The notes under the pieces: generated by a model | What the model was told of the DNA's origin: nothing | The model's input: only the letters and a program-made list of their open reading frames with translations | Database searches by the model: none | Made by a program: the position numbers and the translations under genes | IMG/VR virus record: IMGVR_UViG_2706795421_000001 | Span: 1-22,246 of that record | Length of the DNA: 22,246 nucleotides | Strand: one strand, 5' to 3' | Origin: a virus | Taxonomy: Duplodnaviria; Heunggongvirae; Uroviricota; Caudoviricetes | Shown: piece by piece, positions 1 through 5,575 of the stretch | How the letters are laid out: every line of letters starts with the position of its first letter | How positions within the stretch are numbered: position 1 is the stretch's first letter

Positions 1-46
1 AGCCATTGGTCCCTCCTCTCTGTCAAGAATTCTGTAACATTCACTA

Positions 47-720
47 GGTCACGTCGTGACCCATTGTGTAACAGTCAGCAGACTGTCATTCGGGCAGGGG
101 CATTTGCCCCCTTCCTGCCCTCCTAAACTGACTGGCTTCGTCGAAGCCTTCCCATGCCACCAGCCCGATTATGTAACAGCCTGGCCATGACCATGGCCCA
201 TTGTGTAACGGCATTGCATGCCAGGATCACCAGACAGCCTCAGCCAGGGCAATTGTGTAACCATTCCCCATCCCAGCAGCAGAATATCCCCAGCCAGGAA
301 GCCCATGACCACCCCCATTGCATCTCAGGTGATCAGCCCCTGGAATACGGCCATTGTGTAACGGAACACAGGGACACCAATGCCTACCCATGCCCTAGTA
401 GGCTTCTTCGAAGCGAGCTAATGCCGGCGTCTCTCTACCCTAACGGGAAGAGTTCCCCCTTTATTATGGCGACCGAATAGAGAATGCCCGGTTCATGCGG
501 CCTGTAGGCCATTACAATGGCCAGCCATGGGAAGGATTGCATTACACAATAGGCTTGCCCTCACCCATGAATTGACAGGCCTCTACGAGGCTAGCCAGGC
601 TCAGCTAGTGAGCTTGAGTTACACAATTCATCCTCACATATTGCCCCACTCCCCATGCCACACCCCTGACATTCAACCCCATGCCCCAGCTTCAGCAGAT
701 ACATTTGCTTCGACGAAGCC
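47..720. repeat. Non-coding repeat and palindrome array (candidate terminal repeat, packaging or origin region)
   Basis: CCATTGTGTAAC at 61-72, 198-209 and 351-362; CAATTGTGTAAC at 250-261; ATTATGTAAC at 168-177; reverse copies ATTACACAAT at 541-550 and GTTACACAAT at 618-627. Palindromes at 47-61, 134-148, 507-522 and 707-720, with a degenerate copy at 401-414. The ORFs here lack a convincing RBS. Confidence 0.85.
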
Positions 721-790
721 TGGATATTTCCAGATCATGACGGCGCCTCATGGCCACCCTAGGGTCTTGTTAAATACCCCGGCTGGCTAT

Positions 791-990: not shown

Positions 991-1019
991 TTGACAGGCC
1001 CCTGCCGGGGCTTCACAAT
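991..1019 (+). promoter_or_regulatory. sigma70-type promoter (first early promoter)
   Basis: TTGACA (991-996), 17 nt spacer, CACAAT (1014-1019); followed by SD GAGGAGG (1041-1047) and ATG 1054. Confidence 0.8.
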
Positions 1020-1053: not shown

Positions 1054-1485
1054 ATGGTTTTGTTTATGTATGATGTTGACCCCAGCTCCCTGCCTGAAGG
1101 GTGCTATGAGGCTTACCTGAAGACTCCCCACGCCATCCGTGTTGCCCTGTGTGAGCTGGCTGACTGGGCTAAAGAGGGATGTCCTCGGCACCCTGTGTTT
1201 GGAATCGGTCAACGAATCTGCCACAATGTAGGGAAATACCTTCTCACCTTGGGGGATTACACCCCTACCGCGATGGTGAACTGGAAGCTGGAATACCTAA
1301 TGTCCTGGGCTGGGTTTTCCAGAGGGCACCCCCTCCCCTTTGAGCTAGGTAATAAACGGGATGAGAAGGGAGAGTATTACGATAACCCCAACAGGTTGCG
1401 TTTCCTGGACATGGTGGTTATGATGTCCAAGATGTATTACAACGATGAGATGAAGCGTTTGGAAGGAGGGAAGAATGATGTGTGA
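1054..1485 (+). CDS. Hypothetical protein, paralog family member 1 (143 aa)
   Basis: Start moved from 988 to ATG 1054 because of the SD and the promoter position. Motifs WAKEG, RICHN, LPFE, YDNPNRLRFL. Confidence 0.88.
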   Translation: MVLFMYDVDPSSLPEGCYEAYLKTPHAIRVALCELADWAKEGCPRHPVFGIGQRICHNVGKYLLTLGDYTPTAMVNWKLEYLMSWAGFSRGHPLPFELGNKRDEKGEYYDNPNRLRFLDMVVMMSKMYYNDEMKRLEGGKNDV

Positions 1486-1816
1486 GAATGTGCGTTTTGT
1501 ACTGGCTGTGAAGCTCCTCCGTCCAAAGGTGAAGGAGGGGTTGGCCAGGATGGTCAAGTGGTACAAGGAAGGGATGCCCGATGACTTCACCTTTTCCAAG
1601 TACACCCGGCTCTGTACCAACATCCTTCTTGAGACAAGTGTTGCGCATGCCCTGGACGAAGTGTTCTGGGACTATGGCCTGTCATTCGTCCACTCGTACC
1701 CGTTCGAGGAAGGGAAGCGGACAGATGACCCGGAGGACATCTACAAGAACCCTCTACGGGTCCAATTCCTGCTGGATGTCGGTGCTGTGTTGAAGGAGGA
1801 AGGATATGACTGCTGA
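1475..1816 (+). CDS. Hypothetical protein, paralog family member 2
   Basis: SD AGGAGGG; start 1475 or 1478; overlaps the previous gene. Motifs WYKEG, RLCTN, YPFE, YKNPLRVQFL. Confidence 0.88.
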   Translation: MMCENVRFVLAVKLLRPKVKEGLARMVKWYKEGMPDDFTFSKYTRLCTNILLETSVAHALDEVFWDYGLSFVHSYPFEEGKRTDDPEDIYKNPLRVQFLLDVGAVLKEEGYDC

Positions 1817-2180
1817 GCCAACCTACGCTGAACGTGTTGCTGATTTGAAGGGGGCCTGGGACAGGACTGACAAGGCCCTCCAAGAGGTGCTTCGTGAGTT
1901 CGTAGCATGGTACAAGGACGGGTGTAGGAGTAGTGACCGTTTCACCCGTTACTGGCGTATCTGCACCAACGTGAATAACCACTGGGATAGTGGGCCCTAT
2001 GATGACTTCGAAATGGGCAACCTGTTCATCGCTGCTGGGTACCACTACGTCTGCTTCCCGTTTGAGCAAGGGGAGCGCCTGGATACCTCGGACAACATCT
2101 ACGATAACCCTCACCGCAGGGAGTTCCTGGACCTGCTCCATGAGGTGATCCAGCAGGAGGCCCAGAATGGAGCTGTCTAA
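1806..2180 (+). CDS. Hypothetical protein, paralog family member 3
   Basis: SD AAGGAGG; motifs WYKDG, RICTN, FPFE, YDNPHRREFL. Confidence 0.88.
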   Translation: MTAEPTYAERVADLKGAWDRTDKALQEVLREFVAWYKDGCRSSDRFTRYWRICTNVNNHWDSGPYDDFEMGNLFIAAGYHYVCFPFEQGERLDTSDNIYDNPHRREFLDLLHEVIQQEAQNGAV

Positions 2181-2529
2181 GCAGTTCGTTGCCACCCTGA
2201 TGGGTGTGCCCGTGCCTGTGAAAGAAGCTCTCTTCGAGCTTGGCAAGTGGAAGCAGGAGGGGTTTCCTGATGGCCATAAGGTGTTCAAGAAGACTTACCG
2301 GCTGTGCGATAACCTGGTAGGTTTCCTGGAGTATCGGTCTCTGGACCAATCCCTCCTTGCACCGTGGTGGTCCTACACGTCAGCGTTGTTCCTGGCTGCG
2401 GGGTACCCGGGAGGGTCGTATCCCTTCGAGAATGGAGAATACCTTGACTGGGCGGATGAGCTGTACGATAATCCGAAGCGTCTGAAATTCATCGACATGT
2501 GTTGGGAGGTTTTGAATGGAAATGGGTGA
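2167..2529 (+). CDS. Hypothetical protein, paralog family member 4
   Basis: SD AGGAGG; motifs WKQEG, RLCDN, YPFE, YDNPKRLKFI. Confidence 0.88.
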   Translation: MELSKQFVATLMGVPVPVKEALFELGKWKQEGFPDGHKVFKKTYRLCDNLVGFLEYRSLDQSLLAPWWSYTSALFLAAGYPGGSYPFENGEYLDWADELYDNPKRLKFIDMCWEVLNGNG

Positions 2530-2860
2530 TTATGTGTGGAAAGAGCTTGCACCAGAAGTGAAAGAGGGGCTGTTGGCCCTGGTGAAATGGAAGGATGAAG
2601 GCTTCTCCGAGCATCCTTGCTTTAGCCGAAACTCTCGTCTGTGTAGGAATTTGGCCTCTTTCTTGGAGGCTAAAGGTATGCAACGGGGAGAGGTGATGGT
2701 ACTGACAATCGAATCCATGTCAGGTTTATTCCTGGCTGAAGGTTTTAAAGGGGCGTACCCTTTCGAGAAGGACAAGAAGAAGAAAGACCTTCAGCACATG
2801 ATTTACACCAACCCCCATCGTCTCGAATTCATTGAAACTTGCAGGAGGAAACTGGCATGA
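2516..2860 (+). CDS. Hypothetical protein, paralog family member 5
   Basis: SD GGGAGGT; motifs WKDEG, RLCRN, YPFE, YTNPHRLEFI. Confidence 0.88.
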   Translation: MEMGDYVWKELAPEVKEGLLALVKWKDEGFSEHPCFSRNSRLCRNLASFLEAKGMQRGEVMVLTIESMSGLFLAEGFKGAYPFEKDKKKKDLQHMIYTNPHRLEFIETCRRKLA

Positions 2861-3759
2861 CCCTAGACCTAAATAGAGCACCTGCTTCGGCTACCCACTA
2901 CTCCGTTCGGACGGACTCTCCCTTTACAACCTTCTGGAGAAAGGAAGGTGATCTGTTTACCCGTATATGGGTAGCTGATGCAGAGGGTTTGCGTCTGCCA
3001 GAAGGGCGTACTCCCACACCTTACGAGAAAGGTGTTGCGAGTGTTTATGCCAAGCCCTTGCCATCCCCTCCTCAGGATGTAGTGGATAATCCTGTCATAG
3101 CTTCCTACCGAGAAGCGTTCAGCCCCGCCCCTCAGGTTGCGTCGGGAGAACCCCGGGCACGTGGGAAAGTGGACTACAGTAGTCTGGACAGCTACGTCTG
3201 GAGCCAGGCTCCACTTCAGGCCAACTTCTTCTCCCTGGGGTTGAACGGGGAGTTGAACTGCTGGCTGCGCGTTGAAGAAGACAAGATCGTAACGGTTTGG
3301 ACGGAGCAGGGTACGGTGTATAACTATCGATCATCCGACCGACAACCTTCGGTACCTGGTCCGAGATTCCCCCGCCCCCAGAAGAAGGAAGAGGCCTCCC
3401 CTCAAGAGTGGGACGGTGAAGGACTCCCTCCTGTCGGCTGCACCGTCCAACTGGTGGACATCTCTTCTCCTGTGAGCCCGCCTTTCGATGAGTGGTTGCT
3501 TGGGGACTACCTGGAGGTGATCGCCCACAAGGAGGTTTGTGGAACCGTTCGTCCTGTCGTGTGGAATGACAGGAAGCAGACGGGATCGTCCATCCTTCCA
3601 AGGCTGATTAGCCCTGTGTCCCAAGAGACTCTGGCTGCCGAGAAGGAACGCCAGCAAGGTATCCAGGAAATGGTCTCTTTGGTGAGCAGCATGGACCTTG
3701 CCCGTGCCCTGGAAGTGCTGTATGATGCAGGCTATCGCAAACAGGAGGCCACCAAATGA
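2857..3759 (+). CDS. Modular hypothetical phage protein (300 aa)
   Basis: Start moved to ATG 2857 (ATGA overlap, SD AGGAGGA). Two AP-x-x-A-x-[HF]-[YF]-S segments, a WDGEGLPPVG segment and a C-terminal LYDAGYRK, all recurrent in phage hypothetical proteins. Confidence 0.82.
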   Translation: MTLDLNRAPASATHYSVRTDSPFTTFWRKEGDLFTRIWVADAEGLRLPEGRTPTPYEKGVASVYAKPLPSPPQDVVDNPVIASYREAFSPAPQVASGEPRARGKVDYSSLDSYVWSQAPLQANFFSLGLNGELNCWLRVEEDKIVTVWTEQGTVYNYRSSDRQPSVPGPRFPRPQKKEEASPQEWDGEGLPPVGCTVQLVDISSPVSPPFDEWLLGDYLEVIAHKEVCGTVRPVVWNDRKQTGSSILPRLISPVSQETLAAEKERQQGIQEMVSLVSSMDLARALEVLYDAGYRKQEATK

Positions 3760-4403
3760 ACACCCATGAACGACTGCTACGTGCTGTGCAAGCTCTGCCT
3801 CGGGACCTGATCCCGTCCCTGCATGACCTGGTGGCCTGGTACCACTCAGGCTGCCCGGATGGGTCCCCGTTTAACACCTCCCGTAGGATATGCGGGAACG
3901 TATACCAACACCTCATCTGCGAAAGAGGGGTGAGTCCTGAAAGGGCCTGTGATCTGGAGGACTGCCTGTACTCTCTTTACGGGGCCTTCCTGGATGTTGA
4001 CCTCAGCGACGAGGGGTTCCCATTCGACGACGAAGCGACAATCTACAAGAACCACTACGACAACCCGCTCCGTCAGCGGTTCCTCCGACTGGCCCTGGAG
4101 AAGCTTTCAGGGCCTAAGGTGGAGGTCAGTGAGATGATGGAAGACGCGCTCACAGCCGTGGCCCGCTGGGCCATTTTGAAGGAGTCCTTCCCCTGCTTCG
4201 AACCTCGGTTCCGAATCTGCTGGAACGTGGAGAACTACCTTACCTGGTTAGGGAAGAGCGAGGCAGAGGTCGCCAAAGCTTATCAGGAGTTGTCCAAAGT
4301 CTTCGGCGTCATGTTCCCCTTCGAAAGTGAGGAAGGGTTTGACACAGAGGGAGAGATTTGGAAGAATGATCGCCGACTCTCTTTCCTGGCTCAATTTATC
4401 TGA
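3756..4403 (+). CDS. Hypothetical protein, paralog family member 6 (two tandem domains)
   Basis: ATGA overlap, SD AGGAGG. Domain a: WYHSG, RICGN, FPFD, YDNPLRQRFL. Domain b: RICWN, FPFE, WKNDRRLSFL. Confidence 0.88.
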   Translation: MNTHERLLRAVQALPRDLIPSLHDLVAWYHSGCPDGSPFNTSRRICGNVYQHLICERGVSPERACDLEDCLYSLYGAFLDVDLSDEGFPFDDEATIYKNHYDNPLRQRFLRLALEKLSGPKVEVSEMMEDALTAVARWAILKESFPCFEPRFRICWNVENYLTWLGKSEAEVAKAYQELSKVFGVMFPFESEEGFDTEGEIWKNDRRLSFLAQFI

Positions 4404-4412
4404 GGAGGTGAT

Positions 4413-4760
4413 ATGCGTGATGTGACCCGCTTTACTCAAAAGCAAGCCCACCTTTATGGTGGACGGCTGGGCATTCGAGACCTCCAATTGCACCTTCAAG
4501 GGCAGGGGATGAGCGCTGATGAGGCATTCCATAAGACTCGATTCCTCATTTCCAGCTCTGGTGTGTCCTTGCACCACTCCACGGTTCGAGACATTGCAGG
4601 TTACTGCTGGAGTGCGGGATTCACTTTCGTGGATATCCTCCCTCTTCTCCGGGCTCACGGGTTCAGCCCCGCCCAGTGTTGGGATGAATTTCTGCGGGTG
4701 TGGTGGTGGTGGGAAAACAGTTACCGCCAGGACATGGAGGGCAGTTTGAGACATGAGTGA
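4413..4760 (+). CDS. Hypothetical protein
   Basis: Strong SD GAGGAGGTG; fills the operon without a gap. Confidence 0.8.
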   Translation: MRDVTRFTQKQAHLYGGRLGIRDLQLHLQGQGMSADEAFHKTRFLISSSGVSLHHSTVRDIAGYCWSAGFTFVDILPLLRAHGFSPAQCWDEFLRVWWWWENSYRQDMEGSLRHE

Positions 4761-4977
4761 CATTTACCAAGCTCAAAAGGAATTTGCCAAAGCCTGCAAT
4801 AGCACGTCTGTGGCAGTTTGGTGCAGGTGGACCCAGGCCGGAGGACTCTGGTTTTCTGACTGCGGCATGGAATGGGGCTTCATTGAAGACGGCCCTCAAG
4901 AAAATGAAATGAACTACTGCCCTAAGTGCGGTAAGATGCTACTATCAAAAGGATGGAATGAGAATGCAGGGAATTAA
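4753..4977 (+). CDS. Small Cys-motif (putative zinc-binding) hypothetical protein
   Basis: Overlaps both neighbours; WCRW, SDCG and YCPKCGK motifs. Confidence 0.75.
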   Translation: MSDIYQAQKEFAKACNSTSVAVWCRWTQAGGLWFSDCGMEWGFIEDGPQENEMNYCPKCGKMLLSKGWNENAGN

Positions 4978-5260
4978 ACTGAGCGATGCCATAGTTCAGG
5001 GCATGGGCAAGGCGATTTCAACAGGAAAGCTCAGCACTATGTGCTACCACTTGATAGACCTATTTCCTGAGGGGCACCCTACCCTGAAGGCCTTCGAATG
5101 CTGGCTGAGCACCCATCTACGGACGGAAGACGGGGGCTTCAGTTTTGTCCGTACCATGCTTGAGGTTAACTTCGCGGAGCTTAACCCTGACATCCTCCTT
5201 ACCCGACGAGACCTTGGCCATCTGTGGTGCAACTTCTATGTGTGGCTGTCTTCGACATGA
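4958..5260 (+). CDS. Hypothetical protein
   Basis: Overlapping start (4958 or 4964); continues the operon. Confidence 0.72.
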   Translation: MRMQGIKLSDAIVQGMGKAISTGKLSTMCYHLIDLFPEGHPTLKAFECWLSTHLRTEDGGFSFVRTMLEVNFAELNPDILLTRRDLGHLWCNFYVWLSST

Positions 5261-5523: not shown

Positions 5524-5575
5524 AGGGTGCTGGAGGGGTTGACATCGGGTAGCCCCTCCGGTACCTTGTTTTCTT
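5524..5575 (+). terminator. Intrinsic terminator-like hairpin
   Basis: Arms 5524-5538 and 5553-5567 pair over 15 bp with three G-U pairs; followed by GTTTTCTT. Confidence 0.7.
5539..5567 (+). promoter_or_regulatory. sigma70-type promoter embedded in the hairpin
   Basis: TTGACA (5539-5544), 17 nt spacer, TACCTT (5562-5567); SD GAGGAG and ATG 5598 follow. Confidence 0.72.

Follow-up and report, generated by a model that had tools for sequence, protein, structure and literature searches.

The closest described counterpart of the locus considered here is gp3 of coliphage N4 (EF056009, 1214–1528), which belongs with the 'gp3-like' proteins of N4-like phages and sits in a block of genes, gp1–gp14, upstream of RNAP1 and RNAP2; a metagenomic N4-like contig has a copy in a similar block. 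Within the genus Nankokuvirus, Chevallereau et al. place the early region of Pseudomonas phage PAK_P3 at gp74–gp112 and its genome terminus at former gp113 (PMC4933390), and Essoh et al. report for phage Ab03 a genome of 86,246 bp with a direct terminal repeat of 771 bp (PMC4482731 Table 2), assign the strongest traces of horizontal exchange to the first 22 kb, and mention, with no detail given, that indels in these phages sometimes fuse open reading frames (ORFs) (PMC4482731). The stretch of DNA analysed here, IMG/VR record IMGVR_UViG_2706795421_000001 (22,246 nucleotides in full, hereafter the window), is the physical left end of this same phage, Pseudomonas phage vB_PaeM_PAO1_Ab03 (Nankokuvirus), whose full 86,246-bp record carries direct terminal repeats. 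Beginning 283 nt past the terminal repeat at 1–771, the region 1054–4403 contains six genes that carry seven copies of one domain of about 100 residues, with no copies elsewhere in the 86-kb genome. This locus is almost certainly an array of N4 gp3-like paralogues (PHROG 2176/2510).

The N4 protein and the Ab03 copies share the same domain and the same size of about 100 residues. A family profile, made mostly from unrelated phage proteins, matches the Ab03 genome exactly seven times (E-values 1e-13 to 6e-25), which is far beyond chance, and in coliphage N4 it matches positions 1211–1519 with an E-value of 4e-22; hhalign gives a probability of 99.25% over 101 columns. N4 gp3 has the motifs W..G, G/R-L-C-x-N, P-F-N and N-x-x-R-[IL]-x-W/F, all of which match the Ab03 copies. 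Every one of the six genes matches phrog_2176 (E 3e-38 to 3e-55), and four also match phrog_2510 (E 3e-10 to 3e-3). All six are open frames with GGAGG-type ribosome sites 7–10 nt upstream of the ATG, and the first five overlap one another by 11–14 nt. The proposal of the initial annotation that one unrecognised domain has been amplified in tandem is thus borne out, in that neither a Pfam or NCBIfam model nor a convincing solved-structure match was found for it. The candidate undescribed system that it suggested is not peculiar to Ab03, the domain being that of the N4 gp3-like/PHROG 2510 family, present in 191 phage records.

With a profile built from the seven domains, 339 representatives of clusters at 50% identity are recovered at E ≤ 1e-3, most of them about 100 residues long and all in PHROGs of uncharacterised kind, namely phrog_2510, phrog_2176 and phrog_6418. 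In a tblastn search with a typical member, the 191 phage records, in all of which the protein is annotated 'hypothetical', come from phiEco32-like phages, Drulisvirus and other Autographiviridae, Phapecoctavirus, and phages of Erwinia, Ralstonia, Burkholderia, Rhizobium and Delftia. Overall, the family is present in N4-like, T7-like and phiEco32-like phages and in large myoviruses of Proteobacteria, and has so far been seen only in virulent phages of these bacteria; cluster look-ups lead mostly to metagenomic contigs of phage size, and a single-protein scan of genome contigs gave no bacterial homologues. Some representatives have two or three domains, including a three-domain protein of Burkholderia phage BcepSaruman. 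No recurring Pfam or NCBIfam family was found in the window genes or in 121 family members, and hmmscan of these 121 members against Pfam at E ≤ 1 returned scattered chance-level matches only. The extensions of longer members hold no Pfam domain, the domain being fused to itself only, and a search for longer fusion forms gave nothing, which is weak evidence.

The seven Ab03 domains are only 23–42% identical in pairwise comparisons, but their alignment retains 11 invariant columns. The motifs that the initial annotation had read across the six genes are in place: R-[IL]-C-x-N, [YFL]-P-F-[ED] and [YW]-x-N-x-x-R-x-x-F-[LI] occur in seven of seven domains, and W-x3-G in six, the last domain having W-x5-S instead. 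Across the family, in an alignment of 121 sequences that averages about 21% column identity, the same framework is visible as W28 (119 sequences), G32 (110), F40 (113), C47 (120), P86 (121), F87 (119), N102 (117) and R105 (120), and the corresponding W, G, F, C-x-N, P-F and N-P-x-R are all present in the window copies, the one exception being the last domain, which lacks the G. In R-[IL]-C, the Arg is particular to Nankokuviruses, with Gly in its place in most other members of the family. Judged from this conservation pattern, Cys47, Asn102 and Arg105 could mark a shared ligand-binding or catalytic site. The picture of a conserved scaffold with a variable middle is also upheld: when orthologues from 12 genomes are compared, the stretch between the CxN and PF motifs shows an excess of variable columns (73/204 versus 125/528, odds ratio 1.8, p = 0.001), an effect that comes from copies 2, 4 and 5 and less from copy 6. 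A zinc site formed by Cys33, His36, Cys47 and His112, residues common in the wider family, was considered and set aside: Cys33, His36 and His112 do not co-vary (Fisher p 0.07–0.28), so a coherent metal site is unlikely.

The AlphaFold2 model of copy 4, built on the 121-sequence alignment, has a predicted local distance difference test score (pLDDT) of 91 and a predicted template modelling score (pTM) of 0.86, and consists of six helices with two long irregular loops (residues 31–45 and 78–95). The model of the 215-residue two-domain protein reaches a pTM of 0.52 on a shallow alignment and is uninformative on whether its domains pack against each other. In BFVD, the matches to the copy 4 model are all uncharacterised proteins of virulent phages, with template modelling (TM) scores up to 0.88, and include the Ab03 215-residue protein itself; family models from Achromobacter, Delftia, Klebsiella, Rhizobium and Burkholderia phages match with probability 1.00 and TM scores of 0.56–0.76, a comparison of prediction with prediction. 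Foldseek against the PDB gave no solved structure at E ≤ 1 (best E 1.6). The best VIA-align match, at Z 5.1, is the C-terminal domain of class I LysRS, followed by MukF, JetA, Cmr5 and winged-helix proteins at Z 3.3–5.0; these values lie within the tool's own range for unrelated helical proteins, and there is therefore no convincing match to a solved structure. Shape and feature searches of the ESM Atlas stayed within the range expected of unrelated helical proteins, and the family profile run against PDB sequences gave two chance-level arginine-kinase matches only. Among known phage anti-defence proteins of solved structure (anti-CRISPRs, signal sponges and DNA mimics), nothing relevant scored at Foldseek E ≤ 1 or VIA Z > 5.1, although such lists may miss a relationship. 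As far as these searches go, the fold is possibly new.

In sequence, the region shares 99.7% identity with Pseudomonas phage vB_PaeM_PAO1_Ab06 and 92–97% with KPP10, PAK_P5, CHA_P1, G1 and about 30 other Nankokuvirus records. The seven copies counted by the initial annotation are correct for Ab03 but not for its close relatives, which have eight. Counted with the family profile, there are 7 copies in Ab03, 8 in PAK_P3, 8 in KPP10, none in PAK_P4, 1 each in N4, phiEco32 and RSB1, 9 in phiWec188 and 10 in PsgM04F; Ab06 also carries eight. The related records are all about 385 bp longer than the window across the region. Aligned to Ab06 by blastn, window positions 4056–4072 match both 3990–4006 and 4376–4392, so that 386 bp are missing in Ab03. 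The loss removes ancestral copy 7 and restores the frame between two genes formerly in different frames: the 215-residue protein matches Ab06 ORF_008 exactly over its first 106 residues, and ORF_009 exactly over its last 116. The 'double-domain' gene at 3756 therefore does hold two domains, as had been proposed, but is a chimera of two ancestral genes. As the crossover lies in DNA encoding Y-D-N-P-L-R, copy number can change through recombination within the conserved motif sequence of the family itself, and because Ab03 is viable and plaque-forming without copy 7, this copy is dispensable for growth on the isolation host.

In the tree of the family, the eight Nankokuvirus domains group together, with 97% support in the Shimodaira–Hasegawa-like approximate likelihood ratio test (SH-aLRT), along with one long-branch outsider. 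From this single grouping, and from the lack of copies in PAK_P4, the representative of the sister genus Pakpunavirus, it follows that the expansion arose in the Nankokuvirus lineage. The ratio of non-synonymous to synonymous substitution rates (dN/dS) of copies 1–5 against PAK_P3 is 0.19–0.34, indicating purifying selection in the same range as for neighbouring genes. Along the array, dS itself varies about 100-fold, from 0.007 to 0.68, and copies 2, 4, 5 and 6 fall into discrete allele classes that are independently distributed among the 12 genomes; copy 5 has three such classes at 64–100% identity. This pattern agrees with the horizontal exchange that Essoh et al. assign mainly to the first 22 kb. 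Copy 5 is also the only basic copy (isoelectric point (pI) 8.4), the other six of the seven domains being acidic (pI 4.6–6.1).

The initial annotation had described the array as the first-expressed operon, at the earliest locus of the genome, and neither part of this description survives comparison with the RNA-seq data of PAK_P3. The array corresponds there to gp114–gp121, and the early region is at the other genome end. The array genes are mixed in timing, with log2 ratios (13 min over 3.5 min, S5 Table of PMC4933390) of −1.5 for gp114, −0.7 (not significant) for gp115, +0.7 (not significant) for gp116, +1.4 for gp117, −1.2 for gp118, +1.7 for gp119, −0.1 (not significant) for gp120 and +1.3 for gp121. 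Their read density is low: taking replicate-1 reads from the same S5 Table over gene length, reads per bp at 3.5 min are 64, 34, 9, 5, 65, 5, 15 and 7 from gp114 to gp121, compared with 483 for gp100 and 1,840 for gp84, so that array transcripts are 7–400 times rarer.

As opposed to one operon, four conserved sigma-70-like sites and jumps in read density point to several transcription units. The sites, P1–P4, are consensus matches, and the hexamers of all four are identical in PAK_P3. P2, P3 and P4 each lie within the 3′ end of a coding gene. P1 lies 220 nt after the terminal repeat and precedes copy 1, whose PAK_P3 counterpart gp114 is early-biased. The hexamers of P2 are kept although the copy 4 protein around them is only 72% identical to that of PAK_P3, and across this site PAK_P3 reads at 3.5 min rise from 1,697 (gp117) to 22,243 (gp118). 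Read density goes up about 2.8-fold from gp119 to gp120 at P3, and about 5.6-fold from gp121 to gp122 at P4, which precedes the next, unrelated gene at 4413–4760. The jumps at gp114, gp118, gp120 and gp122 thus each lie directly downstream of a site, and from this coincidence the array appears to be transcribed from several promoters, transcript levels decaying between them. Expression of the array is moderate, early in onset and persistent, and the array is neither the first nor the most strongly expressed locus of the phage.

Table 1 Features of the paralogue array and its surroundings at the left end of the Ab03 genome. Positions are those of the window; copies are numbered after the eight ancestral copies; 'profile' is the family profile.
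Feature	Position	Strand	Evidence and remarks
Direct terminal repeat	1..771	.	100% identical copy at 85476-86246 of same 86,246-bp record
P1, sigma-70-like TTGACA-17-CACAAT, 35 nt before copy 1 ATG	991..1019	+	consensus scan; identical hexamers at same place in PAK_P3
Copy 1, 143 aa (PAK_P3 gp114, KPP10 ORF107)	1054..1485	+	phrog_2176 E 3e-55; profile E 2e-17; dN/dS 0.30 vs PAK_P3
Copy 2, 113 aa (PAK_P3 gp115)	1475..1816	+	phrog_2176 E 4e-38; profile E 2e-13; dN/dS 0.19; two allele classes
Copy 3, 124 aa (PAK_P3 gp116)	1806..2180	+	phrog_2176 E 2e-45; profile E 7e-18; dN/dS 0.19
Copy 4, 120 aa (PAK_P3 gp117), modelled copy	2167..2529	+	phrog_2176 E 4e-46; 72% identical to PAK_P3 orthologue
P2, sigma-70-like TTGACT-17-GATAAT, inside 3' end of copy 4, before copy 5	2444..2472	+	identical hexamers in PAK_P3
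Copy 5, 114 aa (PAK_P3 gp118)	2516..2860	+	phrog_2176 E 3e-40; phrog_2510 E 3e-10; profile E 6e-25, best match
Unrelated 300-aa gene (PAK_P3 gp119) splitting the array	2857..3759	+	phrog_3483 E 4e-63
P3, weaker sigma-70-like TTGCCC-17-TATGAT, before copy 6	3698..3726	+	conserved in PAK_P3
Chimeric gene with two domains (215 aa), made up of copy 6, the tail of ancestral copy 7 and copy 8	3756..4403	+	profile matches 3804-4097, 4125-4397
Deletion junction, 17-nt stretch encoding Y-D-N-P-L-R	4056..4072	+	16/17 identical between parental sites
P4, sigma-70-like TTGACA-17-AAGAAT with TG, inside end of copy 8	4339..4367	+	consensus scan; conserved in PAK_P3

The longest open frame of copy 1 starts from an ATG at 988, where it overlaps the −35 hexamer of the promoter-like site P1; the ATG at 1054 has a GGAGG ribosome site and is the annotated start in Ab06, KPP10 and PAK_P3. 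In the relative RP7, an implausible 942-nt frame is annotated at the copy 1 locus. The unrelated gene that splits the array has no Pfam match and no match to the family profile, occupies the same position in each of the 11 relatives examined and is late-biased in PAK_P3 (gp119, log2 +1.7); its N-terminal 110 or so residues fall outside the phrog_3483 match. Downstream of the array, positions 4753–4977 encode a 74-residue protein with a C-terminal zinc-ribbon-like CxxC pair (Pfam Zn_ribbon_3, E 1.3e-4, under the curated cut-off), which is highly variable among relatives, at 66–89% identity. About 1.1 kb 3′ of the array, a strong terminator-like hairpin at 5524–5567, with an 18-pair stem followed by a T-rich tail, may close the left-end block of small genes.

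These observations lead to the following scheme. One ancestral, all-helical gene of about 100 residues was duplicated repeatedly in the Nankokuvirus ancestor to give eight domains in seven genes, and the copies diverged to 23–42% identity, each then being kept by purifying selection. The resulting cassettes exist as discrete alleles shuffled among phages by recombination, with copy number changing by recombination at the conserved motif DNA, the route by which Ab03 lost copy 7. Host RNA polymerase probably reads the array from the several predicted sigma-70-like promoters, at modest levels and from early infection onwards. Each copy may then act as a small, mostly acidic, stand-alone binder, in which a helical scaffold (W, G, F, C-x-N, P-F and N-P-x-R) would present a variable hairpin of helices 3 and 4 together with two loops, and the host protein or allele that it meets may differ from copy to copy. 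Such products would act by titrating or inhibiting host factors, whether defence proteins or housekeeping targets, and the array would serve as a set of accessory host-manipulation or counter-defence cassettes, singly dispensable on permissive hosts.

That the copies are binder or inhibitor scaffolds directed at host or defence proteins is the reading we tentatively favour, as a real but less than even prospect. It is suggested by the proteins being small, stand-alone, mostly acidic, fused only to themselves and without an enzyme family or known fold, by the concentration of variation between the CxN and PF motifs, by the occurrence of the family across virulent phages with very different replication and transcription machineries and its absence from the sister genus, and by the dispensability of copy 7, the repeated amplification of the family and the exchange of cassettes. 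Several observations pull the other way. The literature searched reports no functional data on any member of the family, be it a binding partner, a phenotype or toxicity, and this holds for N4 gp3 as well; Cys47, Asn102 and Arg105 are near-invariant (97–99% of 121 diverse sequences), which is stronger than a pure scaffold needs; and copies 1 and 3 show no enrichment of variation in the middle. Whole-gene dN/dS shows no positive selection, and neighbouring unrelated genes are as mosaic as the array, so that the shuffling of alleles characterises the left end in general and gives no evidence of an arms race at the array genes. Finally, expression of the array in PAK_P3 is low and partly late-biased, which is untypical of a first-line takeover function.

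The near-invariant residues are also the starting point of a different and rather unlikely explanation, in which one shared site (the invariant Cys of C-x-N, the P-F loop and N-P-x-R) binds or modifies a small molecule (for example a cofactor, or an immune signal derived from a nucleotide), and the array raises dosage or widens the ligand range, making each copy a sponge or small enzyme and not a protein binder. Cys47, Asn102, Arg105, Pro86 and Phe87 do persist at the counts given above despite a mean identity of about 21%, and map to the two long loops, or next to them, in a confidently predicted structure; the signal sponges known from phages are small, stand-alone proteins as well. The model, however, has no structural match to a solved sponge or enzyme in the Foldseek and VIA searches (best E 1.6 and best Z 5.1), N-P-x-R at a helix start and P-F-[NDE] could serve purely structural capping and packing, Cys33, His36 and His112 form no coherent metal site, and eight copies at 23–42% identity exceed what dosage needs. 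A more speculative combination, to which we assign a low probability, would make the N4 gp3-like domain a widespread, so far unrecognised counter-defence scaffold, in which an invariant Cys/Asn/Arg pocket with one shared chemistry, for instance the capture of an immune signal derived from a nucleotide or the covalent trapping of a host enzyme, is joined to a variable hairpin that sets specificity, the arrays being multi-valent immune-evasion cassettes traded by recombination.

Expression timing and gene order bear on another possibility, that the proteins serve the phage's own programme in regulating transcription or replication, chaperoning assembly or being packaged as internal proteins, with paralogues specialised for phage partners. 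In PAK_P3, three of the genes (gp117, gp119 and gp121) have a late bias and three others (gp115, gp116 and gp120) show no change from 3.5 to 13 min, the single phiEco32 copy (gp52) directly adjoins a DNA polymerase-like gene, and 36 of 37 related records keep all eight copies. We nevertheless consider such a role unlikely, since PAK_P4, of the sister genus Pakpunavirus, shares the lifestyle and lacks the domain altogether, Ab03 is viable without copy 7, the family spans different machineries (N4-like, Autographiviridae, Kuravirus and Phapecoctavirus), and the neighbourhoods inspected show no evident shared phage partner gene. Binding of nucleic acid (DNA, tRNA or other RNA) by a winged-helix-like or anticodon-binding-like module is more improbable still: the weak best structural matches do include the C-terminal domains of class I LysRS and GluRS (Z 5.1 and 3.8), the N-terminal domains of MukF and JetA (Z 5.0 and 4.9) and winged helices of ORC, MarR and ArsR type (Z 3.3–4.0), but the tool's own calibration puts all these values in the range of unrelated helical proteins, six of the seven domains are acidic, and the model has no beta wing.

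What is new here is the deletion chimera of Ab03, with its origin through a conserved motif, the comparison of copy numbers, the analysis of allele classes and selection, and the joint reading of promoter-like sites and RNA-seq data. With 339 clusters at 50% identity, the domain is among the more widespread phage-only families of uncharacterised function, and identifying the target of any one copy would allow hundreds of phage genes to be annotated. PAK_P3, KPP10 and other Nankokuviruses are candidate therapeutic phages against Pseudomonas aeruginosa, and devote about 4% of their genome to this family. They also offer a natural experiment, with eight old paralogues in discrete alleles, one deletion variant (Ab03) and a sister genus with none, while the model phage N4 carries a single-copy homologue in an easily handled host. 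The analysis further corrects the assumption that the genes adjoining the physical left end of these phages are their main early genes.

Outside the phage family, the likeness that stands out is with a colicin D immunity protein (ImmD): an AlphaFold DB cluster representative so labelled, 108 residues long, resembles the model with TM scores of 0.63/0.71 at 23% identity. Immunity proteins are small helical inhibitors, often found in tandem arrays. The link was examined and is not supported: among the 25 Pfam families listed for the 121 members there is no colicin-immunity family, the profile finds no colicin immunity chain in the PDB, and the listed Foldseek and VIA matches include no ImmD chain, only the automatically named AlphaFold DB entry matching. 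The neighbours at 2857–5260 have no match to a toxin or nuclease family. The ImmD label is probably an automatic annotation of a bacterial member of the family.

Among phages, the same family has been amplified independently in unrelated virulent phages. phiWec188 (Escherichia) and PsgM04F (Pseudomonas), of Phapecoctavirus type, carry 9–10 copies, partly as tandem triplets, but these lie dispersed through some 16 kb of an internal accessory region rich in other small genes, away from the genome end, and are nearer the family consensus than the Ab03 copies (E down to 2e-26). PsgM04F (3001–3994) and phiWec188 (2501–3494) have the same local gene layout, including a tandem triplet of genes of about 110 residues at the family match, a likeness that is odd for phages with recorded hosts as different as Pseudomonas coronafaciens and E. 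coli. As opposed to N4, phiEco32 and RSB1, which have one copy each, the Nankokuviruses have eight (seven in Ab03), arranged in tandem beside the terminal repeat and including a two-domain gene, and their copies are set apart from the wider family by an Arg in place of Gly before the invariant Cys and by a PHROG of their own, 2176.

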